IMG/VR virus record: IMGVR_UViG_3300037127_000056 | Location: 32,001 to 96,000 of that record | Length of the DNA: 64,000 nucleotides | Reading direction: 5' to 3' (one strand) | DNA from: a virus | Lineage: Duplodnaviria > Caudoviricetes | Part shown: piece by piece, positions 244 through 63,687 of the stretch | How positions within the stretch are numbered: the first letter of the stretch is position 1 | Layout: every line of letters starts with the position of its first letter | Position numbers and translations under genes: made by a program | The notes under the pieces: generated by a model | What the model was told of the DNA's origin: nothing | Databases searched by the model: none | Seen by the model: the letters and a program-made list of their open reading frames with translations, nothing else

Positions 244-1509
244 TCAGATGAGAGCATTCAGCGCGGCGATGGCGGCGTTTTGCCACGCTCGTAGGGGTGA
301 GTGCCCGGCTTCACTAACGCGCTCGCCACAGACATGTGACGCCCGCTCGTCAACGGTAAGCCACGACTGACCGACCTCTGAATCGGCGGGCTCGTCATCT
401 TTCAAGGCCGGCGCCGATTCCCGCCGGCGGGACACGATATGGAGGATGTCGATTCGGGCGTCTTTGGGGTTCATGTCATCGGTATCGAAAGTACCCATGG
501 TGACGCTTGGCATGCCAAGCAAGCACAGCTCAAGGGCACCACGTTCCCGGTCCAAGTTCGCCGGCACTGCGACACGGATGTCCAGATCGTCGGCGGAAAG
601 CCACGTCGCCAGCCGCTCGCAACACACGCGGATCGTCGCAAGGGCAAGAATTCCACGTTGCCAATTGAGACTGGCGTCCTTCACGCGAGCACCGATGAGG
701 CTATCGTCTAGCCGGATCAAGACTTTGCGGCGGGTCCGCCACTGCCGATTGTCGTCGCGGTTGAAGTACAGAAGTTCATTCGTGACGAAGCGGGCAATGA
801 AAGGATCGATTTCCTCGTGGTCGTCGGCGAGCCCGAACTCGGACGGAACGATGCCGCTGGGACGGCCGTGATTGGAAAATCCGTCGTAGCCCCCAAACTC
901 GGAGCCGTCATCGTCGGGAACTGGCACCCGTGCGGCGTGGTCGGGGTATGGAACCAATCGGCCCGGCACGAGAGAAAAGATGGCGTCGCTTGCTGCCAGC
1001 ACGTGCGCGACGCCCATGCGCTTGCTTTCCGTGCTGAGAACGTCGAGGTGCTTGGCGGTGTAGGCATCCGATGGTAGGACTAGACGTCCACAGAGACGGG
1101 CTCCACGAATCGCCGCGCCTACGTCTTGGTCGAACTGGGCATCATTCGTATCACCCGGCATCAGCGCGTCTTCCACCGCTACGGCGGAGACTGGCCGCGA
1201 GGGAATACCGCAACGGCGCATGATCTGTTCCGCGATGATAGCCGCTTGGTCGGTGACCAAGCCGGCATTGATGATGCCTTGTATGTATGGTGAATTGCGG
1301 ATTCTGTCAATGATCTGGCGACGATACGCGATCACCGACGAATCATAGGACCCCGGAACGGGATGTCCCATTAGCACCGTCACGATGTCTCGTGCGATCG
1401 CGGGAACGTAGGCACGGTTACATACCTGGAGTGTCGCGCGAGCGATCGCAGCATCTTTCATGACGAATCCGCTGGTACGCAACCACGCGGCGTCGGATGA
1501 TCCGTTCAT
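244..1509 (-). CDS. vWA-related partner of MoxR (ternary-system inactive-vWA-like)
   Basis: GGYDGFSNHGRPSGIVPSEFG...FIARFVTNELLYFNRD then a beta strand VLIRLDDS; overlaps the MoxR stop by 4 nt. Confidence 0.65.
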   Translation of the reverse strand: MNGSSDAAWLRTSGFVMKDAAIARATLQVCNRAYVPAIARDIVTVLMGHPVPGSYDSSVIAYRRQIIDRIRNSPYIQGIINAGLVTDQAAIIAEQIMRRCGIPSRPVSAVAVEDALMPGDTNDAQFDQDVGAAIRGARLCGRLVLPSDAYTAKHLDVLSTESKRMGVAHVLAASDAIFSLVPGRLVPYPDHAARVPVPDDDGSEFGGYDGFSNHGRPSGIVPSEFGLADDHEEIDPFIARFVTNELLYFNRDDNRQWRTRRKVLIRLDDSLIGARVKDASLNWQRGILALATIRVCCERLATWLSADDLDIRVAVPANLDRERGALELCLLGMPSVTMGTFDTDDMNPKDARIDILHIVSRRRESAPALKDDEPADSEVGQSWLTVDERASHVCGERVSEAGHSPLRAWQNAAIAALNALI

Positions 1510-2477
1510 TTGGTCGAACCTCGGAGGTGGCGCGGGACTTCCGTTGCCAGCTGGTCAAGGGAATCCAGCGAGTCGCCACAGTACTTCAACAGTTCGAGAT
1601 CATTGCGGGTAACGACGTCGCCGCGTAGCAGCCACGCGTACGCCCGGATCATGGAATACATCTGGCCCAAGCGACGATCGGAGATGAAGATGTTGAGGTC
1701 GTGGCGGATGGTAGAAACCAAGCGCTTGAACTCGCGGAATTCGTCCTTGCCAAAGAGGGGGTCATTTTCACCGCTGGTACTGACCAAGTACTCGCGTACG
1801 GTGAGGACATCATCCAGACTACATGCAGTCGCCGCCCATGGCTTGCGGCCCGCGGCCTTGTGCCGGGCGATCTCGGCACCGGCATTGAGCAAGGCATCGA
1901 AGTGTTCGATTCTCAGAGGACGGACGACCATCTTGAGAGCGAACCGGTCCCGGAGGGCGCTGAGTTCGGAAGTCTGCGGGATGTCGTTGGTGGCGCCTAC
2001 CAGGACCTCCAGGGGGATGTCAATGGCCCGACCCTCCTCATACACCCGGTGATCGTTGATGGCACCAAGAAGGGCATTGAGGATTGCCGAGTTGCCCTTG
2101 AAGACCTCATCGAGGAACACCATCTTCGCCGTCGGGAGCATACCCTGCATGCGGCGAATCATGCGACCCTGCTTGAGGTTCATGATGTCCACCGGGCCAA
2201 GGACCTCGCCCGGCTCGGTGAACTTCGTCAGTAGTAGTTCGAAGTAGTCGTCATCTGAGACACCGATGGCGTCGCGGAACATCGTGATGGCCATCGATTT
2301 GCCGGTGCCCGGAGGGCCAGCAAGTAGCAACGGGTATCCCGCGACGGCGGAGACCGCAAGAAGATCGACGACCTCATCCCGCTGTACGAGGTTGGCCTTG
2401 ACGCCGTTGATGGCTGTGATGATGCGCTGCCGAGCCTCATTGGCCGCGGCATTGGACTTGGTTTTTTTCTTTCGCAT
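1506..2477 (-). CDS. MoxR/RavA-family AAA+ ATPase
   Basis: Walker A GPPGTGKS, Walker B FLDEVFKGNSAILNALL, GATN, ALRDRF. Confidence 0.92.
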   Translation of the reverse strand: MRKKKTKSNAAANEARQRIITAINGVKANLVQRDEVVDLLAVSAVAGYPLLLAGPPGTGKSMAITMFRDAIGVSDDDYFELLLTKFTEPGEVLGPVDIMNLKQGRMIRRMQGMLPTAKMVFLDEVFKGNSAILNALLGAINDHRVYEEGRAIDIPLEVLVGATNDIPQTSELSALRDRFALKMVVRPLRIEHFDALLNAGAEIARHKAAGRKPWAATACSLDDVLTVREYLVSTSGENDPLFGKDEFREFKRLVSTIRHDLNIFISDRRLGQMYSMIRAYAWLLRGDVVTRNDLELLKYCGDSLDSLDQLATEVPRHLRGSTK

Positions 2478-2510
2478 GGCGCCAACGCTACCAGGTCCCG
2501 CCGGCGGGAA

Positions 2511-3458
2511 TCAAGAGAATTCTGGGGTGTTCTCCACGATCATCGCATCGATGCCGGCAAAGTACGGGTCCAGCTCAGCGATCATTCTCAAGATGATGCG
2601 GCGACGTTTGGATGTCCGATGCAACTGGAGTGCCAACGTCCTCCAGTGCGTCATCACCCGGGACGTCGCAAAGAGATCCATAGCAGCGACGTGGACATCA
2701 TGGATCTCTGCCATTGTCGCCGCCCCCTCGGTGGGAACGAACTCATACACGTTCCCACGATGGACGTCATAGGCTTTGACGATGGCTCGGACGATCAGGC
2801 GGGCGAGGTCCTCACGCTCGGTGACTTGGCACGCCGTGAGGTAGCTGTGACGTGTGTTGGCCCCCGCTATGGCAGTGATTGGCCACGCGGAATCATACAC
2901 ACGCTGCTGAGCCGCCACGATGGAATCGGTGATGCGTGGCCCGAGGGCCGCGAGGATGATTGCCCCGCTCCCAGACATCCATGGGATCCACTGTTCCGGT
3001 TCTATGGAAATTCCACTATCGGGAAACATGAGTCCCGCGAGGGGATCGTTCTCCAACCGGTAGCGCGTCAACATGTCAACCCGCCGGTTCCCCGCACTCG
3101 CTACGAGGACCCCGAGTAAGGAATCCCCGGGGGTTTGCGGCGTGACGTGCAAGCTGTCGCCGTGCCGTGAGCGTCCGTTGAATCGGAAAATCTCGGTGGC
3201 GTAGCTGGAAAACTTGAGATCGCCGTGTGGGTACCGGTCCCATATCCGCCCGGCGGTATCGTCGAGCCCTTCTTCGGGTAACGCTCCATTCGTAAGCAAT
3301 ACCCGTGCCAGGCCCCTCTTTATCGTGTCGGTGATGCATGCCGCCCCACCTTCACTGAGGTTTTCAAACCCCAGCGCGCTGGGGTTGACCTCGCGGCCCA
3401 TGAATACCCGCTGGATGGCGTGAAGGAACGCAGCGTCCTGTTGTGTGACATTGTACAT
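2511..3458 (-). CDS. Hypothetical protein, FtsH-ternary-system accessory (fvmX6-like)
   Basis: CITDTIKRGLARVL...GRIWDRYPHGDLKFS resembles the recalled family pattern; immediately upstream of MoxR. Confidence 0.5.
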   Translation of the reverse strand: MYNVTQQDAAFLHAIQRVFMGREVNPSALGFENLSEGGAACITDTIKRGLARVLLTNGALPEEGLDDTAGRIWDRYPHGDLKFSSYATEIFRFNGRSRHGDSLHVTPQTPGDSLLGVLVASAGNRRVDMLTRYRLENDPLAGLMFPDSGISIEPEQWIPWMSGSGAIILAALGPRITDSIVAAQQRVYDSAWPITAIAGANTRHSYLTACQVTEREDLARLIVRAIVKAYDVHRGNVYEFVPTEGAATMAEIHDVHVAAMDLFATSRVMTHWRTLALQLHRTSKRRRIILRMIAELDPYFAGIDAMIVENTPEFS

Positions 3459-3542: not shown

Positions 3543-5423
3543 ATGAGACCACAAGAACTGCTCACAACCGACGGTCCCCTCGCCGACATGATTCCCGGCT
3601 ACACTGAGCGTCGTTCTCAAATCGCGGCGGCGTCCACAATGTTCGATGCCATGACCCGCGGTGCCGAACTCATGATCAACGCCCCCACGGGAACCGGCAA
3701 GTCATTTGCGGCCGGCACCGCGGCGGTGAGCTATATCGCGGCACCTGGACCTCCCCGTCGTGTTCTCGTGGTCACCGGGTCCATCCCACTTATGGATCAG
3801 TACCTTCACACCGACCTTCCCGTCGTGCGTCGCATGGCCGCCGCTGTTGGCGTCCCCCTCGACATCGTTGCGATCAAGGGGTCCAACAACTACCTCTGCG
3901 CCGCGAAGCGGGCCACGTTGAAACGCAACGAAATCCCGCGGCGGGAACACAAGCGCCTCCGGGTGATTGAAGAATGGGCGGACACCACGAGGACCGGAGA
4001 CGTCGCGGAGCTGGAGACAGATCCGGGCCAACTGTGGGAGCATTTCAGCTTGGGACGGACCCCATGTCGAGGTCATGTTTGCCGTTACGCCGGTGCATGT
4101 AGTCTCTTGCATGCCAGGGCGAGGGCCCGGGATGCTCAGATCGTCGTGACGAACTACCACTACCTGTTGGCGCAGGCACGCCGAAGCCACAAGTGGATCG
4201 AAGGGTTCGACGCCATCATCTGCGATGAAGCTCATGTGATCGCCGACATCGCTCGGACCGCCCTGGGCTGGCAGATCGGGGAGCGACGGGTGGCCATTCT
4301 CTCACGATTCGCGGAACGATCGATATCGGACACTGCGGTACAAACCACGGCTGCGCTGAGCCGCATTCTAAAGCGCTTCGCCGGGGACTCCGCTACCCGT
4401 ATACCCGAGACAAGTACGGTACGCGTTGACGCGCTTGTGGGGGCCATACACGATGCATTGACATCGAGCCGCGATACCTTGGAAACGATCCCACCGACCA
4501 ACCGCGAGGCCCGCGCCGACGTCAACGCGGCAATCGCGGGCCTCGAAGATCTCATCAAGGAACTGTCGTCATTCTCACTTCAGGAGGATGGGTACGTTTT
4601 CTACGCCGAACCCGTCGGCAAAGGGGCGCGACTCTGTGCCGCGGTGGTGCAACCCGCGAGCCGGCTCCGCAATTTCGTCTGGCGTCACGTGGATTCCGTG
4701 GTGTGTATGTCCGCCACTCTGAGCCCCATGGACTTCGTGGCCCGCGAGATCGGCCTCACCGGTGCCCAAGAACTGTCGGTGTCGTCTCCGTTCGATTCAG
4801 AACGTCGGTTGTTCTACCTCCCCAATGCCCTGCCCTGGCCGACCCAACGGGATGCCTATCGTGAAGCCGCGGGCCGACACATCGTCAAGCTCATTCGTGG
4901 CGTCGGTGGGAAGGTGCTCAGCTTGCATACGTCCTACGCCGGGCTCAAAGCGGCATCGGAATCTCTTCGCCGCGCCCGGATCAAGCACCGATGTCAAGGG
5001 GATGCGAGCCGTGACGTTCTCGTTCGTTGGCTCCGCGAAACCGATGATGGTGTCCTTCTTGGGACGGAATCGTTCTGGACTGGGATTGATGTCCCCGGCA
5101 TGTCGTTGCTCGTGATTGACCGGCTGCCATTCACGCCACCCGGTGACCCCGTGGGAGACGCTCTCAAGGATAGATTCAAGGCTCGGTTCTTTCCGTTAGT
5201 GGCGCTACCTCAGATGCAAGTCAAGCTCTTGCAAGGCATCGGGCGGGCGCAACGCAAGGCCACGGATCGCCCAGTGGTGGCCATCTTGGATCCACGGATA
5301 TGCCCCGTCCCGCCGGCGGGAAAGAAGCGGGCCGGCTACGTGAAGCGGGTGCTCAAGGCGGCGGGGGTCACGAAATGGACCCCGGATCTGAAAAACGTGT
5401 TGAAGTGGGTTGGTGAGGGTTGA
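3543..5423 (+). CDS. dinG: DinG/YoaA-family Fe-S SF2 DNA helicase
   Basis: APTGTGKS, KGSNNYLC plus C-x4-C-x5-C Fe-S cysteines, VVTNYHYL, DEAH, SATL, SFWTGIDVPG, QGIGRAQR. Confidence 0.92.
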   Translation: MRPQELLTTDGPLADMIPGYTERRSQIAAASTMFDAMTRGAELMINAPTGTGKSFAAGTAAVSYIAAPGPPRRVLVVTGSIPLMDQYLHTDLPVVRRMAAAVGVPLDIVAIKGSNNYLCAAKRATLKRNEIPRREHKRLRVIEEWADTTRTGDVAELETDPGQLWEHFSLGRTPCRGHVCRYAGACSLLHARARARDAQIVVTNYHYLLAQARRSHKWIEGFDAIICDEAHVIADIARTALGWQIGERRVAILSRFAERSISDTAVQTTAALSRILKRFAGDSATRIPETSTVRVDALVGAIHDALTSSRDTLETIPPTNREARADVNAAIAGLEDLIKELSSFSLQEDGYVFYAEPVGKGARLCAAVVQPASRLRNFVWRHVDSVVCMSATLSPMDFVAREIGLTGAQELSVSSPFDSERRLFYLPNALPWPTQRDAYREAAGRHIVKLIRGVGGKVLSLHTSYAGLKAASESLRRARIKHRCQGDASRDVLVRWLRETDDGVLLGTESFWTGIDVPGMSLLVIDRLPFTPPGDPVGDALKDRFKARFFPLVALPQMQVKLLQGIGRAQRKATDRPVVAILDPRICPVPPAGKKRAGYVKRVLKAAGVTKWTPDLKNVLKWVGEG

Positions 5424-5435: not shown

Positions 5436-6152
5436 TCACTGATCGCCGCCACCTTCACGCCGCTCGCGATCCCGCTTGAGGGCATCGTGGGTTTCCTGCA
5501 AGCGATGAAGGATGTCTTCCTCGCTCGTTGGGAGCCCGCCCATGGCCTGGACACCGATCACCTCATCGGGACCACCGAGTAGTTGCCGCTCCGCCTTCAG
5601 GAGCCGCTCCGCACTTGCCGTCGCCGCTTGATGGGCCTGGGTGAGCTTCCATATCACCGACGCCGCCTTCTCCGCCACGGCGATGTCGATGCCATCCTCG
5701 GAGTTCATGGACTGCGCGATCTCGAACGCCGCCCCATGAACGAGACCGGCTAGGGGTGCCATGCCCTCGATCAGCTCGTTCATGGAATCGATGAGGCCCA
5801 TGGCACCCCGACGCGCGCGCTGAACCATCCGGGTCTCTTCGATCTTTGTCGTTGCGGCATCGATGATGGCATCGTCGGCCGCCTCTTGCAACGCCTCACC
5901 GGCTTGCTTGAAGAGTGGGGTATCATCGGCTTGTGCCCGCCGGGCACGGGCGTCAATGACATCACCATCGGGCCACGACTGCAGCGGGGCCAACCCGGCA
6001 TCGGGGTTACCAAGTTCCCACGCGCGGGACGCGATGAGCTTTGATACTCCGGCTGCCCGTCCGAGTTTGACGATGAACCCCCGCTTCAAGGGATCCAGGG
6101 ACGGTAGAGCGTCACGCATCGCCGTCCATTCTGCAACACTCGGATATTTCAC
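5436..6152 (-). CDS. Helical protein with N-terminal HTH-like segment; terminase small subunit candidate
   Basis: GRAAGVSKLIASRAW HTH-like segment, C-terminal ERQLLGGPD; TATAAT-N7-GTG start. Confidence 0.35.
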   Translation of the reverse strand: MKYPSVAEWTAMRDALPSLDPLKRGFIVKLGRAAGVSKLIASRAWELGNPDAGLAPLQSWPDGDVIDARARRAQADDTPLFKQAGEALQEAADDAIIDAATTKIEETRMVQRARRGAMGLIDSMNELIEGMAPLAGLVHGAAFEIAQSMNSEDGIDIAVAEKAASVIWKLTQAHQAATASAERLLKAERQLLGGPDEVIGVQAMGGLPTSEEDILHRLQETHDALKRDRERREGGGDQ

Positions 6153-7849: not shown

Positions 7850-7897
7850 TTCCCGCCGGCGGGAATCGTCTCGTCCCATAACCGTACACTCTAACCC

Positions 7898-10800: not shown

Positions 10801-11047
10801 ATCCGAGGACCTCGCGAAGGGCTTCGAGGCCATTGATCTCGAAGCGAAGTTCCGGGATGCTAGCATCGCCGCCAATGCCGTGGAGCGTGACAAGCTTGCG
10901 GCGATGCTGTCTCGCGAGATCAGCCAGCTCACAAATCGCCCCATCACCATACAGATCGATCAGGAAACCCTCGCCGTCGCGGTGTCCGAGGGCCAGCGAC
11001 AAGACGCGGCGCGCGGATTCCAGGCGGTGGGGCCAGGTGAGGGTTAG
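7898..11047 (+). CDS. Tail tape measure protein (TP901 / PhageMin_Tail type)
   Basis: 1049 aa, Ala/Gly-rich helical; AADFEFGLAAVKNIANAT...TQFSPTQAVEGLQNLAAAGFS core; central hydrophobic helices. Confidence 0.93.
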   Translation: MALNQLGLGMLFTARDAASATVVGLTKNVAGLEGRSKATASALQTGLGGVAAVAVGAGLSKLVNQAADFEFGLAAVKNIANATASDMVILRDAAFEAGLKTQFSPTQAVEGLQNLAAAGFSAAKSAQLLDRSLILAQAGQISVAQSTATMATAIKLFNLQGKDQETLVDKLLKTTSMFKIHSVDLEQGLAKTAAAALLTNQSVDEMLLTVGLIKNVFPDAGEAGNSVSRAMQSLSQKADKVKKDFGVDVLDANGAFKPALDLFLELDEASAKAFPNAAKRSEKLSRLLGSFGIKGFSAAVGSIDEFATSNNLTRKQAAAQLRGDIAGAEGTADQFLAGLNATFKGQSIILEGAVQTLAVALGEPLLKVLVPAVKRAAEFVADLARVVKDANPEFKQMIARIALTASAVLAFGGIVAILRVGLGLLLPALKAAAIGFAGTMLAAIPLIAVIGGVALVARAAAKSMDTSFGDAKAAVTGFFEDAVLAGKAFVQLMRTGEFSGSVKQELNRAENAGIKRFVIRLGMFAHRIEKFFEGVAGGINATMGRVQPALKRAGQSLMGLGKAMGFVSQKGDGVGDSLPGASFFEAGASIGRALASIFTGAVDVFGVVVDVAAGFISRMKGIFETFSSVFTGLFDNLTELGNEIGVTFMTVGRSVNGGAGPAVNVGKTIANAIGLVTIALVKAASIATKIATSLLQAFRPISYVVLPILRFVANHLTEIILILVGIKMARSLRNLSSLAEGFTAIKTAASGAAAASASFLRTQKKAQPGRDEFGRFLPKGAQAPGGARRDATGRFLPAGGVATAADKTEKALGKLAVAAEVLKVGFMGFALGTVLDQWLDISGQVSDMLTNRSGRGAGTAKGTKFDPTGRAANLRKFAKDIETDIQKSQKTIQSLAEAKVVLPQFRATAERAKTGQLQESDVGVLRKIGGFKEEEALITPDKLNAAQGEIRDALREAAAIEAAQRVAQSEDLAKGFEAIDLEAKFRDASIAANAVERDKLAAMLSREISQLTNRPITIQIDQETLAVAVSEGQRQDAARGFQAVGPGEG

Positions 11048-11523
11048 CCCATGATGTCTTTGGTCACCCATTCTTCGTTGAACTTGGTGAGCCTGGATAC
11101 AATGGGGGACCAATCAACATCGAACGTGGTGTAGTTTGCCCGGCACCGTAGCACTTCGAGTGCCGTCATGTAGGCGGCACGCTTTGCGGTGACTTGGCCC
11201 ATCAGTGCGCGGATCGAACGGGCGATCACCCATGGTGCATTGGTTTCGATCTTGGATGCGTGCGCGCGGCGTACCGTGTCGGTCGCCGCTGCATCGGCCG
11301 CCTTTATGGCGGCATCCACCTTTTCGCGAGGCATCTTTCCTCGAATGTACAGCTCAGCGACATCTATTACATCGGTTGTTCGGAGGTCATGTACGTACTC
11401 TGTCAAGAGCTTGAGACACCAACATGCGAAAAGTTTGACGTCCCGAACAGGGATGTGGGTAAGAAGATTCCACACCATATCGGTGGGATGCGAATCATCG
11501 TTGGGCATTTGCGTACGATTCAT
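11044..11523 (-). CDS. Hypothetical phage protein (Imm5-like helical family)
   Basis: LFACWC...DLRTTDVIDVAELYIRG...AAADAAA pattern. Confidence 0.5.
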   Translation of the reverse strand: MNRTQMPNDDSHPTDMVWNLLTHIPVRDVKLFACWCLKLLTEYVHDLRTTDVIDVAELYIRGKMPREKVDAAIKAADAAATDTVRRAHASKIETNAPWVIARSIRALMGQVTAKRAAYMTALEVLRCRANYTTFDVDWSPIVSRLTKFNEEWVTKDIMG

Positions 11524-11647
11524 GGCACAACACTACATCACTTGGTTGACTCAATGCAAGGAAGTCCGTACACAATCTCGGATTCCCGCCAGCGGGAATC
11601 CTGTTACCCTCCTTGCACCTCACCCCACGCCATGCTAAATCCATGGG

Positions 11648-16244: not shown

Positions 16245-16547
16245 CTAGTCCTCATCCCACGACAGTTCGCTGTTGCCGCCGCGACGAGTCTCGCGATTTC
16301 GAAGACGGTTCAGCAAGTGAAGGTAGTCAAGAGCTTCCACCAACGTAAGCTCCATCACTTCACCCATGCGGAACGTGAATCCGGAGCCACGACTCTGGTA
16401 GCAGAGGTTCCCGATGATCTCGGTGATGTCTTGCCGGCTCGGTATCGGGACGACACCGCCGACGATCAGTCCTTCATCTGGCCGCGGGTCTTGCGCTTGC
16501 GCTTCGTTGAATTCGGACGCCAGAAGCTGGACATTCCTCCCAAAGGG
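16245..16547 (-). CDS. -1 frameshift extension of the tail chaperone (GT-like)
   Basis: Minus-strand C CCT TTG at 16547-16541; the -1 frame is open for 100 codons (…IIGNLCYQSRGSGFTFRMGEVMELTLVEALDYLHLLNRLRNRE…) to TAG. Confidence 0.75.
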   Translation of the reverse strand, partial: PFGRNVQLLASEFNEAQAQDPRPDEGLIVGGVVPIPSRQDITEIIGNLCYQSRGSGFTFRMGEVMELTLVEALDYLHLLNRLRNRETRRGGNSELSWDED

Positions 16548-46435: not shown

Positions 46436-46867
46436 ATGAGTCTCCATCCAAGCAGTCCCGCCGGCGGGAATCCCGGCCCAATCCTCAACCCCAAACAGGC
46501 CGCCCTCAAGGCACGCCTTCAGCAATCTCTCAAGCATATCGGTCCCGAGGCATTCGAGGACCTCTACGGCTCACTTCAGGACCTCGTAAGGTCTGACAGC
46601 GAGGCCAAGGAAGTGTTCGCCGGCTTCTTCAAGGCGATCGTCGCGTCATTCTACACCGATCAGGTACAGCTACTCCAGATCACCGCGCATGAACTCCGGC
46701 GCCGTGTCATGCTGTGTATCCAGCTGTTCCGGGACATGCGCGGTGATTGCTACTGGACCTTGAATCGGACCCTTGACACGCTTCCCCATGCCCTCCGGGT
46801 GACCCTCGATGGCGAGGTTTTCGAGCCCAAGAAGGAACGCTCGACATGGGCAGCCACCGATGACTAG
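46436..46867 (+). CDS. Hypothetical protein downstream of portal
   Basis: GGAGG RBS, 143 aa. Confidence 0.65.
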   Translation: MSLHPSSPAGGNPGPILNPKQAALKARLQQSLKHIGPEAFEDLYGSLQDLVRSDSEAKEVFAGFFKAIVASFYTDQVQLLQITAHELRRRVMLCIQLFRDMRGDCYWTLNRTLDTLPHALRVTLDGEVFEPKKERSTWAATDD

Positions 46868-47362: not shown

Positions 47363-48823
47363 ATGCGAATTGCAAAGCAGATCCCCGAATCCGATGCGGA
47401 CATCGGGGAGCGTCGAGAAGCCGCCGATGAGCGAGCCGAAGGGTTCCCCGAGATCGAAGTCCTTGAAGACCAAGGGCTGAGCGCGGCGGAAGATGACCCT
47501 CTCGACGAAGCTCTATGGGGTGACCCCGTCAACCTCCGGTTCCCGCTGGCCTACCGCGGCGACACCGAGCCGGACCGTGAGCGGTCGTCAAATGCCCGGT
47601 CGCGGTTCAAAGGGCCGGACGGGGCGGATGCTTACGAGCGCGACGAAACTAAAGGGGTCGTCCACACCCGGATCGTGCAAGCGGAGATCGATGCCGGCGT
47701 CGAGCCCGGCTACGACCCGCAGGACCCACTAGATCGTCTGCTGAGTCCGCAAGTCAAACGACAACTGGGAGTTGAAAAGATGCATTACGGCGACGCGGTT
47801 CCATCTCCGTCTATCCCAACCCATGACGACAGCCCAGAGCACAAGCTCTACACCCTTGTCGAGCGCCACGACCGATACCCAGACATCGCGATACTCGATG
47901 GCATGCCCGCCGCGCGGCGCGATGAGCCGCTGTGTGAGGACCTCTGGGGCGATCCCGTCAACCTGATTTTCCCGCTGGCGGGACGCCACGAGGACTGGCC
48001 CAACGCCATCCACGCCAACACGGCGCGCGAGTGCTTCAAGGATGAGGATTCTTGGCGCAACGCGATGATCTACCCCGATGACCTGAGCCGGGCGTGTGTG
48101 CATGAGCGCATCGTCCGGGCCCAGATCGCCGCGGGAATGACCCCTGAGATTGATCCCGAGGATCCATTGGACTGCCTTCTGCCGGCGGACCTTTTGTATG
48201 GGGCCTCTGATGTTGACTCGGCATACCGGAGGAAGTCTATGCCACTGAATTTCGAGGCCAAACTGGCCGCCCTCGCGCCGGAGCCCGCTACCCCGGCGAA
48301 ACCCACCCTGGACAGTCTCCGTGAGACCCTGGCGTCGTTGGCGAAGTCGGCGGACGGGGGGCTCAAGGACGGGCTGACCAAAGCCCTCGCCGATCTCGAT
48401 GTCATCCGCAAGGCGTTTGATTCGATTGAAGGCGTAGGCTCATTCACCGAGACCTATGGTCCCGGCGGTATGGCTGAGCCGGAGATGAAGCTCACCGACC
48501 CCGATCCGGTACCCCCGGTGATCGACGATCACAATCAAGAGGATGAGCTGGCCCCGGACGCGCAGTTCGATGTCGATGATCCCCGGCTGCGGCAGCGTGA
48601 AATCCACGGCATCGCGACCAACGATGTTGCGGTCGTTCCGTGGGAAGCGAATGCCCGCACCGAAGCCAACCCCGGTCGGCCGGATGCGACCTCGGTGATC
48701 CCGATGGTTGGTCCGTCGGGTGCCGAGTTCGCCCCAGTCGATGGTGTCGCAAAGGCGTTCGGCGATTTCGAAAAGTTGCCCGCCCTTGGCTACGACTCGC
48801 AGATCCTCGGAGCGAGCAAGTAA
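47363..48823 (+). CDS. Head-associated acidic protein with a tandemly duplicated domain
   Basis: Two copies of LWGDPVNLxFPLA...N.AR..FK...VH.RIV.A.I.AG..P..DP.DPLD.LL; first gene of the head operon. Confidence 0.7.
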   Translation: MRIAKQIPESDADIGERREAADERAEGFPEIEVLEDQGLSAAEDDPLDEALWGDPVNLRFPLAYRGDTEPDRERSSNARSRFKGPDGADAYERDETKGVVHTRIVQAEIDAGVEPGYDPQDPLDRLLSPQVKRQLGVEKMHYGDAVPSPSIPTHDDSPEHKLYTLVERHDRYPDIAILDGMPAARRDEPLCEDLWGDPVNLIFPLAGRHEDWPNAIHANTARECFKDEDSWRNAMIYPDDLSRACVHERIVRAQIAAGMTPEIDPEDPLDCLLPADLLYGASDVDSAYRRKSMPLNFEAKLAALAPEPATPAKPTLDSLRETLASLAKSADGGLKDGLTKALADLDVIRKAFDSIEGVGSFTETYGPGGMAEPEMKLTDPDPVPPVIDDHNQEDELAPDAQFDVDDPRLRQREIHGIATNDVAVVPWEANARTEANPGRPDATSVIPMVGPSGAEFAPVDGVAKAFGDFEKLPALGYDSQILGASK

Positions 48824-50338: not shown

Positions 50339-51285
50339 ACAAAGCTCGAACGAATCGCCGGGCCCGCAAGGCCCAGAACAAACTGAAGAACCTCACGGTT
50401 CAGGAGGTGTCGATCGTGGATCGTCCCGCAAATGACCACCCGTTTCATCTGACCAAGTCCGAGACCCCCGTACAGGTGGACGGGGATAGCTTGGTCATCG
50501 ACCGTTCCGCATCGGCAGCCGCAACCGCCGCTCTCGTCGCGGGACAACACTTCAGCGCCGCCATCACGAAGATGCTTACGGTTTCCGAGCATGGGCGCCA
50601 GCAGGTGCATTCCTACCTCGGTGAGCTGTACATGCGCATCGATGAGCTGTGCAACATCCTAGCCAATGTCGATGGCAACCCCATGGGGGGCACCCTGGAC
50701 TCCGCGATCGGACAAGAGCTTGCGGAAATCGCCGGGATTTTCATGAAGCTGGCCACCGCGTTTGGTGCGACTTCGATCGTCGAGCCGGCTGCAAAGGCAG
50801 ATGCCAGTGACGACGCCGACGTGTCCAAGGCCGGTCGCAAGATGAGCAAGATGAATGCGTCTCGGTTGCGTGATGCCATCGTGCTTCTGAACGAGCTGGC
50901 GCAGACCGTCATGCCGGATGAGATCTCGGGTATGTACGAGAAGATGTACGGCGGGAAGTTCAAAAAGTCGGACGACGCGAGTCCCGCCGGCGGGAATCTC
51001 CCGGCCTACATCCCCGGCGCCGATGTCGCAGCCGCGCTTGCTGATACCGTCTCGAAGTTCGACAACGGTCTCAGTTCTACACTCGATCATGTGGTGGCTC
51101 TTACTCAGCGTGTGGATGCCCTGGAAGCCCGACCGGTTGCGAAAGCGGCCCCGGCGCGCCGGATCAACACCCATGCACCCAGCAATGCCATCGACACCGC
51201 GGATGCTGCCCCCCGGCATGCCCGTGCCACCGAACTCGATGCCAAAGTCCCCGCGTTGGGCTGGGACTCGGAACTGGCCCGCTAG
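50335..51285 (+). CDS. Putative scaffold protein
   Basis: LKNLTVQEVSIVDRPAN N-terminus, KAGRKMSKMN..RL; lies between protease and capsid. Confidence 0.7.
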   Translation: MNKARTNRRARKAQNKLKNLTVQEVSIVDRPANDHPFHLTKSETPVQVDGDSLVIDRSASAAATAALVAGQHFSAAITKMLTVSEHGRQQVHSYLGELYMRIDELCNILANVDGNPMGGTLDSAIGQELAEIAGIFMKLATAFGATSIVEPAAKADASDDADVSKAGRKMSKMNASRLRDAIVLLNELAQTVMPDEISGMYEKMYGGKFKKSDDASPAGGNLPAYIPGADVAAALADTVSKFDNGLSSTLDHVVALTQRVDALEARPVAKAAPARRINTHAPSNAIDTADAAPRHARATELDAKVPALGWDSELAR

Positions 51286-51315
51286 GCCACAACCCTTACC
51301 ACGAGGTATAGCAAT

Positions 51316-52275
51316 ATGAGTATCAACAACCTGGCCCAGCGAGAGCCCGAAGCGATCAAGAAGGCCGACCTCCGTCTCAGCAACATCCTGGATCCTCTGG
51401 GTGAGCTTGTCCCGGCTCAGGCGAACAACTTCGTCCGCCTGATGCAGAAGGAATCCGTGCTCTTGGGTGCGGCCAATGTCGAGGTTCTGCGCGCCAAGAA
51501 GCAGCGCGTCAACAAGGTGCGGTTCGCGCAACGGATCCTCCGCCGTGGCGTCGAGGGGCAGGCCCTGTCCCAGGCCGACCGCAGTGCCCCGGACTTCACC
51601 GTCGCGGAGTTCGACACCCAGCTGATGAAGGCTGAGGTCAACCTTACTCAGGAAGTGCTGGAGGACAACATCGAGGGGGATCGGTTCATCTCGACTCTCC
51701 TGGAGCTGATGTCCGGCGCCATCGCCCGCGACCTCGAAGATGTCGTGGTCAACGGTGATACCAGTATCGTCGATCCGACCAATCTCCTGGGCACCTTCGA
51801 CGGTATGCTGGTTTCCGCGACCACCAACGTCACCAACGCCCTGGGCTCCGTGTTCGATCAGAACGTCGCCAACGCGATGATCCAGACCATGCCGGTGGAG
51901 TTCCGCAAGAACCGTGCCGCGCAGCGCTTCATGACGGATCACAACTCCGATCAGAACGCCCGCAATACCCAGGCCACTCGTGCCACCGAGTTGGGCGATG
52001 ACCAGCTGACCAACTACAACGCCGTGCGCTGGCACGGCATCAACCTCATGCCGATCGATGTCTGGCCGAGCAACTTGGGTGGCGGTCTCGATGAGACCAA
52101 TGTCATCCTCACCGCACTGCAGAATGTTGGCGTCGGCATCTGGCGCCGCTTCAAAATCACTCGCGAAGTGGACAACCGCGCGGACACCGTCTCCTGGATT
52201 GCGTCGGTTCGGGCGGATTTCAAGTACATCGAAGAAACCGCGGTCGTGAAGGCGATCCAGGTTCAGAGCCTGTAA
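51316..52275 (+). CDS. Major capsid protein (HK97 fold, XkdG-like)
   Basis: GELVPAQANNF, EVLEDNIEG, ARDLEDVVVNGDT, FDGML, RADFKYIEETAVVK. Confidence 0.92.
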   Translation: MSINNLAQREPEAIKKADLRLSNILDPLGELVPAQANNFVRLMQKESVLLGAANVEVLRAKKQRVNKVRFAQRILRRGVEGQALSQADRSAPDFTVAEFDTQLMKAEVNLTQEVLEDNIEGDRFISTLLELMSGAIARDLEDVVVNGDTSIVDPTNLLGTFDGMLVSATTNVTNALGSVFDQNVANAMIQTMPVEFRKNRAAQRFMTDHNSDQNARNTQATRATELGDDQLTNYNAVRWHGINLMPIDVWPSNLGGGLDETNVILTALQNVGVGIWRRFKITREVDNRADTVSWIASVRADFKYIEETAVVKAIQVQSL

Positions 52276-52287
52276 GGAGGACTCAGT

Positions 52288-52626
52288 ATGGCACTTTCTA
52301 CTCCCGCTACTGCGCCACTGCGCGCGCATCAATCGCCAGAACTCCAGGTCTACTGCGACGTCATCGAGTTCCCTGGGGACGACGACTACGTCACCGGTGG
52401 TACCCCCGAGTTCCAGTCGTTCGTCCGGGCCGCGGTGGGTCACAACGTCACCGTGATCGCGATCATCGATGTCGGCAGCAACACCGCCGGTACTCCAGCG
52501 CTGTTCGAGCCGGTCTATGACCAGGCCAACGACACCCTCATCGTGCTGGACCCGGCGCGAGTCGAGGTGGCCGCGACGACCGACCTCAGCACCACGACCT
52601 TCCGCCTCGCGGTACTTTCCAAGTAG
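52288..52626 (+). CDS. Putative head decoration protein
   Basis: AAGGAGG RBS after the capsid gene; YVTGG...EVAATTDLS. Confidence 0.6.
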   Translation: MALSTPATAPLRAHQSPELQVYCDVIEFPGDDDYVTGGTPEFQSFVRAAVGHNVTVIAIIDVGSNTAGTPALFEPVYDQANDTLIVLDPARVEVAATTDLSTTTFRLAVLSK

Positions 52627-52641
52627 GAGGAACTCCTCAGT

Positions 52642-52926
52642 ATGGCTACTATCTACCCCACCACGTTCGATGGTCAAAACAACATTGAACGCGGCACCAA
52701 GGTCGTCAAGCGATCTGGTGAGTCGGATCTCGCGACCATCCTTCGGGACGCCGCGGGAGACCTCGCCAACAGTTCGACCGATCTGGGCTTGATTCTTCAG
52801 GCCCTGCAAGCGCTGTCCGACAAGCTGGATCTGGACGCCGGTGTCAGCGACACCGACTACCGAGCCACCCTTGACGGCATCATCACCGTAGTCGCTAGCG
52901 CGTCGCCCTCCACGATCGCCGGCTAA
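52642..52926 (+). CDS. Small putative head protein
   Basis: AGGAGG RBS; KLDLDAGVSDTDY. Confidence 0.6.
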   Translation: MATIYPTTFDGQNNIERGTKVVKRSGESDLATILRDAAGDLANSSTDLGLILQALQALSDKLDLDAGVSDTDYRATLDGIITVVASASPSTIAG

Positions 52927-52958
52927 CATCATCCCCATACTCCAACCAACGAGGAACT

Positions 52959-53634: not shown

Positions 53635-54927
53635 TCACACGACCTTCACATGCGTCACCCACGTGTCCGGCTCGCCGCGGAACTCGCGATGTTGCTTCAC
53701 CTTGGCCCGAATGGTGTAACACTCGCCCTTGGTCATCTCCGGGTACGACGACGTCTTCCAGCTCATCTTGTCGCCCGCTTGGGTACGGAACACGAACAAC
53801 CGGGTGAATCCGCCGTAGCCGTTCTCACCGAAGTCGATGATCTTCTCCAAGGTGACCTCACCGGTGGCGTACTGCCCGACGATCCCGACGTGCTCCCCGG
53901 CAGGCTTGGATCCGTTCCGCTTTCTGGCGTCGTCCTGACGCTTCTGGTACCAGATCCACGCCGCCGCCGCGATGCGGGTGTGACGGTCCTGTAGGTAGAC
54001 GTCCTTGAGACTGGCGATGAGATTGGCCTCGAAGTCATTCCCGCCGGCGGGAATCTCACCCACCGCGGCGACCATCCGCTCGGCATGAGCCCGGTCATCA
54101 TCGGTCACCATAAGCGGATCCTGTCCCCAATAGGACACCATCGCGCGAGACGCCGTCGGAATGAGATTCCGCTCGTACGCCGCCTTGCCGGACACCCATC
54201 CATAGACGCGGGCCGCGGCGCAGACATGCGCCATGAAATCGTCCCGTTCCACGACATGGGGGTAGTCGTTGCCGACGTACCGCATCTCGCCAACGGCCTT
54301 GCCGATCCGTGCGATGTCCTTGAACGTGGTTTCCAGCATGCCGCCATCATCCACGAAGTCCGTGAGACACGTGGAGCCGACCTGTAACGACGTATCGCCG
54401 TTGTGTAGGACGAATGTGGTGTGCCGGCGACGCTTCGTCTGGCAGTGGTCACAGAATGCCGTGGAGCGGACCTTATTCCAGTCCACCCCAGCAAGGAGCA
54501 TCATCTGCGCTCGCGCCATAGCCCCGGTGAACTCGTGTCCGGTCTCGATCATGTGGTCCATGGCAACCATAGCGGATTCCGCGTCGTTGACACCCATCTC
54601 TACCCCGGCGTTGCGGGCCGCGTTGGCGATGATACCGATCGCCGGGATCGACTTGATGACCGCGGTGTCCCCGGCATGCTCGACCTTGGCCAAAACCGTC
54701 CATTCATGGGTCTGCCACACGAGGCCGCTGATCGTGACATCGACCACGGCGACATCGCGAGGCAGCCCCCACGACAGTCCCGACACGGTGTAGATGTCAG
54801 ACGTCGTGATGGTCAATGCGTTGAGGTCACCCCCCTTGGCGCGGCGACGATTGATGCGACCCACGGTCTTGGTGATGACGTCATTCCGGCCGGCGGGAAT
54901 CGTGATGGTGTAGTTCTGCGTGTTCAT
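53635..54927 (-). CDS. Conserved phage protein with Cys cluster and C-terminal OB-fold-like region
   Basis: CDHCQTKRRR...QVGSTCLTDF; WKTS...IRAKVKQHREFRG. Confidence 0.7.
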   Translation of the reverse strand: MNTQNYTITIPAGRNDVITKTVGRINRRRAKGGDLNALTITTSDIYTVSGLSWGLPRDVAVVDVTISGLVWQTHEWTVLAKVEHAGDTAVIKSIPAIGIIANAARNAGVEMGVNDAESAMVAMDHMIETGHEFTGAMARAQMMLLAGVDWNKVRSTAFCDHCQTKRRRHTTFVLHNGDTSLQVGSTCLTDFVDDGGMLETTFKDIARIGKAVGEMRYVGNDYPHVVERDDFMAHVCAAARVYGWVSGKAAYERNLIPTASRAMVSYWGQDPLMVTDDDRAHAERMVAAVGEIPAGGNDFEANLIASLKDVYLQDRHTRIAAAAWIWYQKRQDDARKRNGSKPAGEHVGIVGQYATGEVTLEKIIDFGENGYGGFTRLFVFRTQAGDKMSWKTSSYPEMTKGECYTIRAKVKQHREFRGEPDTWVTHVKVV

Positions 54928-60059: not shown

Positions 60060-60215
60060 GATGACCGACGCTACCGCGGGTGACCTGAGGATGTCAAGCC
60101 CGCCGGTACGGTTTCGCGAGCAACCCCAACACCTATGGGTAATCTGACAGCGGCGGGGTAACTTTCCCGCCGGCGGGACTTGACGCAACGTTGGGTTCTA
60201 TGTACAGTAGCCGAC

Positions 60216-61060: not shown

Positions 61061-61063
61061 CCA

Positions 61064-63586
61064 TCACCGCCAGCGCGGCGTCGGCACACTCTCCCACTCA
61101 TCGTCGTCATCGTCGCTGACACCGATGACCGTCATCTCTGCCCCAGGCTCGTCACCATCTTCGTCATCACGGTCCGGTGGCGCCAGTTCGTCGAAGCGTT
61201 CCTCCACGATCTCGTCGTTGGCCCATAGGAGGCCGCGGCAACCCTCACGCGCGAACCACAGCGCCATGAGATGGTCCCCGGTGTGTGCGCCGCGGGTGTA
61301 TGAGACGATCTCGTCCTGGAGCATCATCAAGGGGGTATGACATGCGCACGGCTCCGTGGGGGCCGTCGCCGGCATCACCCATTGGTCGCGGTCGATTTCC
61401 GCCGAAAGGCCCTCGATGCCGTTGATGGGATCCGACTTCTGACGCCCGGTGGTGAACGCCTGGAATGGTGGTGTCGGAATGGCTGTGTCGTCGCCGGCTT
61501 TGAGACGATCGATTTCAAGGAGCCCCTCCATCACCTGGAAGATGTAGTCCTGTGCGGCGTTGTTCTCGATGATGATCGCCGCGGGGGCGAATCTCTTGTT
61601 GAGATCTAGGACCACTTGACCGATTTCGTCGGCTCGCCATCGCCCGGATTCGACCCACACCAGCTGGTAGACGTGCTGAGTCGGCCACAACACGACGACA
61701 CACATCGCGGACATATCCGCCTTGGCGTGGTTGCGCGCCGCGAGGTCAACCCCGATGACGACGTGGCACCCGAGATCCCGTTGTTCTTGAAGTGAGATCG
61801 ACTTGAACGTCGATGCGCCGGTGCCGCCCTCGTGGTGATGGGGATGCCGGAACAATGACCGGACCTTGGCCTGGTTGAACGGCGATTCCTTGTCATCGGT
61901 GGCCTGGCAGAGGTAGCCGCGTGCAAATTCTGCCGGGGGCTTGTCCTTGCGGAGGAACTCGATCCGCTCGCTGGGGTAGAAGTGGGGGAGCTGCAACTCG
62001 ACATCATCGAGGGGGATGTCGTACACCGCTGGCTTGTACACCGGGAACTTCTTGCATACCCACGGCGACTCCCCGGGCCGGCGGATCATGTCGCGTTCGT
62101 ACTCATGCCATGGGTCACGGGGGTGCCACGGGTTGGCGGCAAGAATGATCCGACCATCCGGCATCAAGCGTTCTTCCATGGTCGTGAGCCACTTCATGAG
62201 CCGCTTCCGGTCTCTGGCGCTGGCAACCGCCTTGAGGTCATAGAGGTCGTCGTAGACCAAGAGATCGACGCGCGCGCCGGTGATCAGGTTGGTGAAGTTG
62301 TTGCCGGGGGCCGCGATCTGGAGGGTGTAGTCTTTTTCTGCGAACGTCGAGCGGCGGACCCGGAAGCGCGACACCTCCCAGGGCAGCGCCTTGTGGAGGT
62401 GGGGAAAGACTTTCCGTACCTCCGGGGAGTCCGAGATCAGGGAACGGACCTGCTGCGCGATCTTGCGGCACGTCGATTCGCCACCCTTGGTCGCGGAGGC
62501 CACGACGATTCGAATGTCTGGGTTGCGGCCGATGAGCCAGACGAGACGATTGATGATCTGGGTGGTGTTGTGGGTGACGTGATAGCCGCGCCCGGCGATG
62601 TAGCTGGAGTCGGGGCTGTCAACCTGGATACAACGCATCGGCCCCGACGGGATGGGTGTGATGGCTGTGACGGTGCGGTAGAGGGATTTCGTGTGGTGCC
62701 CGTCAAAAGTGATCCTGTAGCACGTTTTCGTGAATGGGGCGTGCTCGACATTGATCGTCGCCTTGAAGCCCAAGGACCGGATCAGCTCAAGGGCGTCATG
62801 AGCGAGCCCATGGTACCAGATGGTAAGCTCGACCTGGCCGGATAGCTTGTCGAGCTGCCCGGGGTCCTCACCGCTACCACTGAGTAGGCCCGCTAGCAGG
62901 TTCCGGCGTTGCTCAATGGATGCGGTGAGGTATGTATCCGGGATACGTGGGTCTGCGCGATGGGTTAGGTCCTTGCCGCAGGTGTATGGATCGTTTGGAA
63001 GGTCACGGGCCGAGTACTGGACTGCTAGTGACAGCGGCATCCGCCATCGCTCGCCGGACTTGATGAACACCCCGCCATCCACGAGATCCTGTGTCGTTTT
63101 GACGCAAAGTGCGGGATGCATCGACGTCGTGTCCCGGACCCACCATTGATGGTCGGAGCACGCGTCCATGAACGTCCCGTCATCGAACTCGATGCGGTAG
63201 CTCACAGCCGGTGTCTCAATGGGACTCACGAACACCACGTTGCACCGCCGGCCGTGGCGGTCGAACACTTCGTCGCCAACCTTGAGATCTCCCATTGGAA
63301 CGAATCCACCGGGCGTCGGGATGGGTGTTTGAACGGGAATTTCTTTACCCGTCTCCGGCGAGGTCATGATCCCAAGCCGTGGATGCTCATCCATCAACCT
63401 CTGTAGCTCGACATGAAACGGCGACTGTACGATTTTGGGAATCAATCCACTATCGGCTTTGGCACGGGTATTGTATCCAACGTATTCGATGAACGAGTTG
63501 ACGTCCTCGCGCGCCCGTGCGATCTGCTGTTCCTCGGTGTACCGGAGAAGCTCCAACGCGGTCCGTAGCGTATTGGGATCAACCAT
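61064..63586 (-). CDS. terL: Terminase large subunit, intein-containing
   Basis: Walker A PETGK|T split by the intein, ITGARVDLLVYDD, NPWHPRD, nuclease IGVDLA, IENNAAQ, HTGDHLMALW. Confidence 0.92.
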   Translation of the reverse strand: MVDPNTLRTALELLRYTEEQQIARAREDVNSFIEYVGYNTRAKADSGLIPKIVQSPFHVELQRLMDEHPRLGIMTSPETGKEIPVQTPIPTPGGFVPMGDLKVGDEVFDRHGRRCNVVFVSPIETPAVSYRIEFDDGTFMDACSDHQWWVRDTTSMHPALCVKTTQDLVDGGVFIKSGERWRMPLSLAVQYSARDLPNDPYTCGKDLTHRADPRIPDTYLTASIEQRRNLLAGLLSGSGEDPGQLDKLSGQVELTIWYHGLAHDALELIRSLGFKATINVEHAPFTKTCYRITFDGHHTKSLYRTVTAITPIPSGPMRCIQVDSPDSSYIAGRGYHVTHNTTQIINRLVWLIGRNPDIRIVVASATKGGESTCRKIAQQVRSLISDSPEVRKVFPHLHKALPWEVSRFRVRRSTFAEKDYTLQIAAPGNNFTNLITGARVDLLVYDDLYDLKAVASARDRKRLMKWLTTMEERLMPDGRIILAANPWHPRDPWHEYERDMIRRPGESPWVCKKFPVYKPAVYDIPLDDVELQLPHFYPSERIEFLRKDKPPAEFARGYLCQATDDKESPFNQAKVRSLFRHPHHHEGGTGASTFKSISLQEQRDLGCHVVIGVDLAARNHAKADMSAMCVVVLWPTQHVYQLVWVESGRWRADEIGQVVLDLNKRFAPAAIIIENNAAQDYIFQVMEGLLEIDRLKAGDDTAIPTPPFQAFTTGRQKSDPINGIEGLSAEIDRDQWVMPATAPTEPCACHTPLMMLQDEIVSYTRGAHTGDHLMALWFAREGCRGLLWANDEIVEERFDELAPPDRDDEDGDEPGAEMTVIGVSDDDDDEWESVPTPRWR
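62567..63343 (-). mobile_element. Class-3-type intein (259 aa) with degenerate LAGLIDADG remnant
   Basis: EIPVQTPIPTPGG..MGDLKVGDEV, DHQWWV, MRCIQVD, VTHN|T. Confidence 0.88.
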
Positions 63587-63687
63587 GTATCAATCTTAGC
63601 CGGATAGGTGCGTTTCCCGCCGGCGGGAAAGATTTTCGACAATGCGCTTGACGTGCTGAGGTCACCGGTGTACAAATTGGTCTATCC

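Follow-up and report, generated by a model that had tools for sequence, protein, structure and literature searches.

A dispersed perfect palindrome as the putative operator of a dimeric DNA-binding protein in a wetland myovirus

The stoperators of Cluster A mycobacteriophages (the L5 gp71 sites) are asymmetric 13-mers, present in about 20–30 copies and oriented with transcription in temperate, integrase-bearing phages. They lie in short intergenic gaps and are bound by one repressor, acting beyond classical operators; the phage P1 C1 operators and the conserved inverted repeats of phiC31 are further analogues. The closest system to the one described here is that of the Cluster O mycobacteriophages (Corndog and relatives), which carry a 17-bp dyad repeat, TGTTCGGNNNCCGAACA, in 34 copies in Corndog, about a third to half of them intragenic and the others in short gaps between genes; hosts and other phages lack the repeat, and its authors predicted a dimeric binder, no function being established (PMC4351075). 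In plasmid RK2, the KorB-OB palindrome with its core TTTAGCGGCTAAA is repeated over the replicon, with copies near -35 elements or far from promoters, and one protein, the ParB-family CTP clamp KorB, represses globally and partly from a distance (PMC11790492). Here, we describe a palindrome, TCCCGCCGGCGGGA, repeated throughout a virus genome of the IMG/VR collection (IMGVR_UViG_3300037127_000056, 116,337 bp). The window, the stretch of DNA that was analysed in detail, comprises bases 32,001–96,000 of this record (64,000 nucleotides).

The likeness to Cluster O lies in the tens of invariant palindromic copies, the mix of intergenic and intragenic locations, the absence or rarity of the repeat in hosts and other phages (here among the matches listed) and a phage that is not obviously temperate. 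However, the sequences are unrelated, and the Cluster O repeat has a 3-bp variable centre whereas the palindrome here is uninterrupted. Cluster O sites lie mostly off promoters and are denser at one genome end, while here 17 of 39 sites are promoter-linked and the spacing is even. The lineages differ as well, this phage being a wetland myovirus with no nucleotide match in the phage collection, and the resemblance is by analogy alone.

The first-pass annotation of the window had likened the sites to stoperators and, alternatively, to a parS-like organiser. With stoperators they share tens of dispersed copies (28 perfect and 11 near), 19 of which are intergenic, many in short gaps, but the defining features fail: the site is a perfect palindrome, many copies lie inside promoters, and no integrase, ParB N-terminal domain or repressor was found. 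The missing ParB N-terminal domain equally disfavours the parS-like organiser and sets the phage apart from KorB-OB, which likewise combines palindromes near promoters with others far from them; RK2 is moreover a plasmid with far fewer sites.

A further palindrome was met in an unrelated 91-kb phage of 71% G+C with direct terminal repeats (G003, IMGVR_UViG_3300035445_000156, loci L485–L489). It is a 22-bp sequence, GAGATAACACCGGTGTTATCTC, in 16 identical, evenly spread copies (coefficient of variation (CV) of spacing 0.47) with a central CCGG as here, and was grouped with the start-associated sequences of Cluster K mycobacteriophages as the known system. Most copies are followed by CGGGACAAACC and a ribosome-binding site. 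Unlike the palindrome studied here, that of G003 is linked to an asymmetric GGGACAAACC box and the ribosome-binding site, 25–28 nt before starts and in one orientation. As G003 shares only about four proteins with the phage, its palindrome is analogous to the one here, not the version of a relative.

Copy number and symmetry of the palindrome

In the window, TCCCGCCGGCGGGA occurs in 18 perfect and six one-mismatch copies, against 0.00 and 0.07 expected from dinucleotide shuffles, none of which attained the observed counts. Every copy listed in the first-pass annotation was recovered at its position, and the density it gave, about one site per 2.7 kb, follows from 64,000/24. Genome-wide, there are 28 perfect, 11 one-mismatch and four two-mismatch copies. 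Markov models of orders 0–5 expect 0.002–0.02 perfect copies, so that composition does not explain the motif; a reversed-pattern control yields 0 copies genome-wide, and TCCCGCCGGCGGGA is the sole over-represented palindrome of the genome. The copies in the window are listed below, with site centres relative to the start codon where a promoter is predicted.

419–432: perfect; within the vWA-like gene 244–1509 (minus strand), in frame SRRR
2496–2509: perfect; spacer of the MoxR promoter (minus strand), TTGATT-N18-TAGCGT-N7-ATG; centre -24.5
5308–5321: perfect; within the helicase gene 3543–5423 (plus strand), whose stop is 102 nt further on
7851–7864: perfect; 1 nt past the upstream stop and with the tape-measure start 33 nt downstream, over the -35 position of TACACT-N7-ATG; centre -39.5
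11584–11597: one mismatch, TCCCGCCAGCGGGA; upstream of the promoter of gene 11044–11523 (minus strand); centre -66.5
17371–17384: perfect; middle of a 62-bp divergent gap, over the -35/spacer of TAAAAT-N6-ATG of gene 17407; centre -28.5; the opposite gene is 16466–17344 (minus strand)
18781–18794: one mismatch; in the -35/-10 spacer, 4 nt before TACAAT-N6-ATG of a 97-aa open reading frame (ORF) starting at 18811; centre -22.5
19573–19586: perfect; 4 nt before TTGACA-N18-CATAGT-N7-ATG of gene 19628; centre -47.5
22650–22663: perfect; within gene 22464–23114 (plus strand)
28897–28910: perfect; 48-nt gap between sheath and tube genes, followed by a Shine-Dalgarno sequence and no -10 box
30718–30731: perfect; within ORF 30549–31091 (minus strand), coding SRRRE where the helical C-terminal domain begins
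31747–31760: perfect; spacer of the FtsH-like gene promoter, TTGATT-N18-(TGc)TAGTGT-N7-ATG; centre -23.5
34683–34696: perfect; within the small gene 34538–34780 (minus strand)
38486–38499: one mismatch; convergent gap 38418/38573, the sole convergent-gap copy
39901–39914: perfect; within gene 39575–40180 (plus strand)
42506–42519: one mismatch; 1 nt past the stop of 41374–42504 and 9 nt before TTGCAT-N16-TACGGT-N6-ATG; centre -49.5
44290–44303: perfect; 1 nt before TTGATA-N17-TATCAT-N7-ATG of gene 43914–44252 (minus strand); centre -43.5
46456–46469: perfect; 25 nt past the portal stop, in the first 20 nt of the called gene 46436–46867 (plus strand)
47970–47983: one mismatch; within gene 47363–48823 (plus strand)
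50982–50995: perfect; within gene 50659–52932 (minus strand)
54039–54052: perfect; within the conserved gene 53635–54927 (minus strand), coding PAGG in a loop of variable length
54885–54898: one mismatch; 29 nt inside the start of gene 53635–54927 (minus strand)
60165–60178: perfect; divergent gap, 1 nt before TTGACG-N17-TACAGT-N7-GTG of gene 60216; centre -43.5
63615–63628: perfect; divergent gap, over the -35 position of TAAGAT-N6-ATG of terL 61064–63586 (minus strand); centre -34.5

When the 39 best copies are tabulated by position, the full unit proves to be a symmetric 18-bp sequence, WTTCCCGCC/GGCGGGAAW, with information ending at the W at ±9. The T/A flanks remarked on in the first-pass annotation are borne out by 17 of the 28 perfect sites, which have the form TTCCCGCCGGCGGGAA. 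The motif includes CCGG, GCCGGC and CGCCGGCG, and conservation is equal across all 14 core positions, the central CCGG included. The flanking T/A and W bases are chosen independently on each side, complementarity past ±2 is at chance, and none of the 15 variant copies with one or two mismatches carries a compensating change. The palindrome thus behaves as two half-sites read by a dimer rather than as a base-pairing element, and the symmetry of its two independent 9-bp halves fits the dimeric binder proposed earlier. Lone half-sites are not enriched (4 against 9 expected), and a Chi-like function of the half-site was rejected on that ground.

Placement at predicted promoters

Half of the perfect copies (14 of 28) are intergenic, although only 14.9% of the DNA is (P=1.3e-5); with the one-mismatch copies included, the count is 19 of 39 (P=6e-7), and many sites fill gaps of 33–62 bp. 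Sites are found at 13 co-directional and six divergent junctions, whereas only one of 27 convergent junctions has one, a scarcity that counts against a terminator. Of the two sites that had been placed between divergent starts, 17371 does occupy a divergent gap; in the gene calls made here, 11584 is situated 60 nt upstream of a single minus-strand gene, and it would have divergent starts on both sides only if an uncalled ORF were real. The sites described as preceding the tape-measure (7851) and terL (63615) genes and as lying between sheath and tube (28897) are all where they were said to be.

The promoters themselves are predicted from a regular arrangement. Gene calling with a codon-usage model gave 138 genes (85% coding). 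For 36 of the 138 starts, a TANNNT hexamer ends 6 or 7 nt ahead of the start codon, compared to about one gene at each other offset. Such starts and Shine-Dalgarno starts are mutually exclusive, with one overlap among 39 Shine-Dalgarno genes. A TTGACA-like -35 hexamer (at least four of six matches) stands 16–19 nt further upstream in 21 of the 36. Once alternative starts are allowed, the TANNNT genes rise to 53, often with TGn and TTGACA-N17/18. This leaderless architecture can be seen, for example, at window positions 2477, 7898, 17407, 31778 and 63586. The phage thus appears to transcribe many genes singly, as leaderless mRNAs from predicted sigma-70-type promoters, which would account for its mosaic strand pattern (55 strand switches across 116 kb). 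A simple Escherichia coli-consensus scanner found promoters and terminators at chance level and confirmed only the promoter at 19591.

Relative to these starts, the placement of the palindrome is highly specific. Of the 39 sites, 17 are no more than 75 nt upstream of TANNNT starts (18 starts in all), compared to 5% of random positions (P=1e-12) and 16% of random intergenic positions. Seven have their centres at -22.5 to -28.5, inside the spacer; two, at -34.5 (terL) and -39.5 (tape measure), cover a -35 position without a TTGACA-like hexamer; seven, at -43.5 to -50.5, precede good -35 boxes by 1–9 nt; and the remaining promoter-linked centres are at -58.5 and -66.5. In total, nine or ten sites overlap the -35 or the spacer and seven stand 1–9 nt before the -35. 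The spacer positions of 2496, 18781 and 31747 and the positions of 19573, 44290 and 60165 just upstream (1–4 nt) of a -35, all reported in the first-pass annotation, agree with this map. The MoxR and FtsH-like promoters share the same design, TTGATT-N18-TAG(C/T)GT-N7-ATG, with the palindrome as the spacer.

A dyad-symmetric site overlapping predicted core promoter elements is the classical feature of an operator for a dimeric factor, and the spread of positions, spacer included, is typical of a repressor operator; the 17 promoter sites, from -22.5 to -66.5, fit an operator. Activator boxes and sigma -35 elements must stand at a fixed distance, and the varied distance from site to start suits neither. 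Since 4 to 48 nt separate the site from the -10, we rejected both a MotA-like activator box and a -35 element for the phage's own sigma factor. A MerR-type spacer operator also failed: the spacers are of 18 bp as opposed to 19–20 bp, most sites are outside spacers and MerR_1 has no match.

With moderate confidence, we therefore favour WTTCCCGCC/GGCGGGAAW as the putative operator of a phage-encoded dimeric DNA-binding protein that would act mainly as a repressor and possibly has a genome-wide role too. A homodimeric, sequence-specific protein, most likely encoded by the phage, would recognise the 18-bp palindrome. Sitting on the spacer, on the -35 position or just upstream, the dimer would block or modulate the host RNA polymerase at about 17 leaderless promoters, and the sites would serve as the operator of a phage-wide regulon with the MoxR operon, the FtsH-like protease gene, the tape measure and terL among its members. 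The intragenic copies and the even spacing suggest an additional genome-wide role for the same protein, as a roadblock or in bridging or spreading.

The same placement data bear on whether the palindrome acts instead as an RNA or single-strand DNA hairpin, that is, as a terminator, processing site or mRNA stabiliser between genes. The motif can form a 6–8 bp stem with a CCGG loop, it stands 1–13 nt past the upstream stop codon in co-directional gaps, and pairing is preserved in the variant of a relative, L177, described below. However, a T-run is absent, the stem being followed by A(A/T) on both strands; a single convergent junction has a site while six divergent gaps have one; and at leaderless promoters the site is upstream of the transcript start and hence outside that mRNA. 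The loop bases are also as conserved as the stem, variants within the genome are uncompensated and folding z-scores are modest (-0.9 to -2.2). We regard a hairpin as improbable, and slightly more so than the host-factor reading considered below.

Intragenic copies, spacing and a variant in a relative

Between 12 and 14 perfect copies lie within genes, spread over all three frames, which include SRRRE, PPAG and PAGG, in keeping with the claim of the first-pass annotation that the frames differ and that selection acts on the DNA. The copy at 54039 is instructive. Its protein has more than 5,000 homologues, and in an alignment with 41 of them its loop is among the shortest, so the site did not arrive by insertion of an 18-bp block. 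For the vWA-like protein, no word-sharing homologue was found. The intragenic copies look selected at the DNA level.

These observations also speak to a selfish short palindromic element recently copied around the genome, in the manner of repetitive extragenic palindromic (REP) sequences or miniature inverted-repeat transposable elements. The 28 identical copies, the lineage-specific motif and a sheath-tube gap some 22–36 nt longer than in relatives, with the site inside, would suit such an element. Nevertheless, neither information nor palindromy extends past 18 bp, target duplications are lacking, no Y1/RAYT transposase was found and the 54039 copy is not an inserted block. Random insertion predicts neither the even spacing nor the precise promoter placement, and the motif is not abundant in any genome among the matches listed. 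A selfish origin is thus very improbable in our estimate.

The sites are spaced more evenly than by chance. The CV of spacing is 0.64 for perfect copies and 0.60 when up to one mismatch is allowed, compared to 0.94–1.04 in null models that were uniform, stratified by coding and intergenic DNA, or restricted to one site per gap, with P from <0.0002 (0/5000 runs) to 0.011. The minimum gap between sites is 767 bp, whereas the median minimum in the nulls is 31–166 bp, and intragenic sites avoid the vicinity of intergenic ones (P=0.003).

Even spacing raises the possibility of a mainly architectural function, in which a spreading, sliding or bridging phage protein, in the manner of KorB and ParB but with another fold, would load or anchor at the evenly spaced sites. 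Silencing, compaction or protection of the genome could result, and promoter overlap would be one consequence among several. The over-dispersion, the distance kept between intragenic and intergenic sites and the 12 to 14 perfect intragenic sites, which must be selected as chance expects 0.002, all favour it, and the use of promoter-near and promoter-far palindromes by the single clamp-repressor KorB offers a precedent (PMC11790492). On the other hand, no ParB N-terminal domain, partition or integrase genes were found, the strong and specific -35/spacer placement is not required of an organiser, and any spreading is hypothetical. We consider a mainly architectural function unlikely, if the most credible of the alternatives to an operator.

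Outside this genome, the motif is rare. Among 2.9 million IMG/VR contigs, 32 others contain the 16-mer, always as a single copy. In the genome collection, the matches listed are spread over many phyla as single copies whose flanks are unrelated, and a metagenome scan for the 18-mer gave single copies among the 120 matches listed. The palindrome therefore does not appear to be a host or pan-phage repeat among the matches listed, and no REP- or HIP-like host repeat, an outcome that would have undermined the first-pass proposal, was seen among them. Two matches are of another kind. In a Dysgonamonadaceae metagenome-assembled genome (L063, 310–486), the 14–16-mer lies inside a 23-bp tandem repeat, and in a metagenome contig (L366, 2883–3476) it lies inside a repeated non-coding unit; neither shows protein similarity to the phage.

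A close relative is absent from the collections. Sheath relatives are at most 54% identical; in IMG/VR, no portal relative exceeds 38% identity or shows a repeated palindrome; the portal region had no nucleotide match in the phage collection; and a metagenome protein-pattern scan with the sheath gave no relative. The palindrome screen covered six loci surrounding sheath homologues together with 77 loci from IMG/VR. The relatives keep their structural genes co-linear and have 12–26 nt, without a site, between the sheath and tube genes, while in the phage the orthologues of the tail module are scattered over both strands, each with its own promoter, and the sheath-tube gap of 48 nt has a site.

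The most similar sheath is encoded by a 16-kb fragment (L177, IMG/VR 3300035193_000083; sheath 54% and tape measure 45% identical), which carries TTCCAACCGGTTGGAA three times against 0.01 expected. One copy is upstream of the sheath gene and two are in genes, 3.0 and 4.4 kb apart. Compared to TTCCCGCCGGCGGGAA, TTCCAACCGGTTGGAA has the same frame with symmetrically altered arms (CG to AA in one and CG to TT in the opposite arm) in every copy, and a TTCC-N8-GGAA palindrome is present in none but L177 of about 85 related loci. Uniformity within a genome combined with concerted change between genomes is as expected from a trans-acting factor and its set of sites. A palindrome in L282 was rejected as a third variant of the motif frame, being a single copy without T/A flanks. 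Among distant sheath relatives, L469 has the dyad CGAACCCGGGTTCG three times (3064, 8794 and 18931; one copy mismatched), and L471/L472 have the dyad CGAAGC-N3-GCTTCG four times (415, 2703, 17831 and 18968).

The variant in L177 also bears on the origin of the binder. A host protein could bind the site, with the phage recruiting or soaking up a host transcription factor; profile searches detect no phage regulator, which would suit this reading. However, the symmetric variant in L177 is more simply explained by a phage protein changing together with its sites, and the matches listed in the genome collection are scattered single copies with unrelated flanks. A host factor is thus improbable.

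The binding protein, the phage and its host

The first-pass annotation had named two candidate binders, neither of which was strengthened. For the first (5436–6152; 5439–6152 as analysed here), there is no Pfam match and no helix-turn-helix (HTH), and the protein is modelled as long helices with a predicted local distance difference test score (pLDDT) of 53. The second (given as 30549–31097) shows only sub-threshold HTH signals:

30549–31091 (minus strand): candidate binder, unproven; a 180-aa ORFan and the only ORF of the genome with any HTH signal

These signals comprise HTH_28 (E=0.0018), four more sub-threshold HTH families and the only trace of HTH_17 in the six-frame genome (E=0.0017). 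In the AlphaFold2 model, mean pLDDT is 50, with a helical bundle at residues 120–167 of about 80 and poor values elsewhere. The ORF has no homologue among 5.8 billion proteins and no Atlas match, and a Foldseek comparison with the PDB found no structure at E<=0.001. Six-frame searches for a tyrosine integrase, a serine recombinase and a Y1 transposase (PF01797) gave no match, and partition genes were not found; the integrase and recombinase negatives, as well as those for ParB_N and HTH_3, apply at a cut-off of E<=1.

Several points weigh against the operator reading. Pfam and PHROGs searches over the 138 called proteins reveal no regulator but a sigma factor, six-frame searches with ParB_N (PF02195), HTH_3, RHH_1 and MerR_1 gave no match, and the sole HTH-like ORF combines sub-threshold signals with a poorly folding model. 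About half of the sites are away from any predicted promoter, and the sheath-tube site precedes a gene that is led by a Shine-Dalgarno sequence and lacks a -10 box. The gene calls and promoters are in silico predictions. Finally, simple promoter control does not predict even spacing, which points to an added genome-scale role.

The virus record (genome G000) has a CheckV completeness of 100% and a G+C content of 59.2%, with no terminal repeat seen. A wetland metagenome DNA run is the sole public run listed as containing the genome and is probably the source sample; no RNA run containing it is among the public sequencing runs listed. Profile searches identify a contractile-tailed phage (myovirus) with genes for a sheath, a T4 gp19-like tube, a tape measure, a portal, an XkdF-type protease and terL, alongside a sigma-70 family factor, ribonucleotide reductase, helicases, a MoxR/vWA/'FtsH ternary system' set and an AAA+/M41 FtsH-like protease. 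Specifically, MoxR (bpMoxR), an ivWA protein, fvmX5/6/7 domains, a radical SAM protein and the separate AAA+/M41 FtsH-like protease are encoded, and the 'FtsH ternary' conflict-system gene set, at window 244–3458 (minus strand) and 31778–33871 (plus strand) and at genome 27678–35458, is divided between two loci. The terL product (61064–63586, minus strand; phrog_38, E=9e-42; 840 aa) is interrupted by an intein-like Hom_end (homing-endonuclease) domain at residues 215–299, which is probably an intein. Rfam yielded no family in the window, and no tRNAs were found.

The genome also has a second repeat family of nine copies, CCGAAAGGGATCCACATAACAGTCC followed by a CT-rich tract, at window positions 21558, 21833, 39210, 39479, 58810 and 59012 and genome positions 8547, 8737 and 101571. 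The copies are mostly inverted pairs flanking non-coding regions of 270–400 bp between divergent genes, and two flank subtypes, including outward-facing -10 boxes, can be distinguished. Two copies are within a 965-aa gene at genome 7456–10353.

Various 6-bp palindromes are strongly avoided genome-wide: GTCGAC (0 against 55 expected), CTCGAG (1 against 40), GAGCTC (1 against 35), AGGCCT (0 against 11.5), GTGCAC (1 against 16) and AAGCTT (4 against 16). This avoidance suggests host restriction systems with those specificities and, together with the TANNNT leaderless promoters, may suggest an actinobacterium-like host. It further invites the question of whether the repeated palindrome is itself a restriction-modification or methylation target, all the more as a DUF6094 methyltransferase and a PHROG DNA methyltransferase are among the phage proteins. 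However, phages avoid restriction targets and do not accumulate them. CCGG and GCCGGC are at expected frequency (ratios 1.04 and 1.16), conservation over 18 bp exceeds that of typical enzyme sites and promoter placement would be unexplained, which makes this the least probable of the explanations weighed here.

Significance of the repeat

Genome-wide palindromic repeats in phages are already known, for example in Cluster O, where their function is not established. The phage described here offers a cleaner case through its promoter grammar, TTGACA-N17/18-TANNNT-N6/7-ATG (leaderless), through the half of its sites that are within genes and their even spacing, and through L177, in which both arms of every copy have changed in step. 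Collectively, the promoter grammar, the intragenic sites, the spacing and the change in L177 predict one trans-acting dimeric protein. The putative regulon would bring terL and tail genes together with the MoxR and FtsH-like genes, parts of one predicted 'ternary' conflict-type system, and the shared site gives a handle on the timing of that system during infection.

A bolder proposal, which we hold to be more doubtful than the architectural alternative above, is that the palindromes are evenly spaced nucleation sites for a new, non-ParB phage protein that would load at every site, silence, bridge or shield the entire 116-kb genome and directly shut about 17 leaderless promoters, its specificity co-evolving with the full set of sites from one sister phage to another (CG to AA in L177). 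If true, this would be a phage-borne, genome-wide silencing system of undescribed fold and could explain repeats of the Cluster O type.

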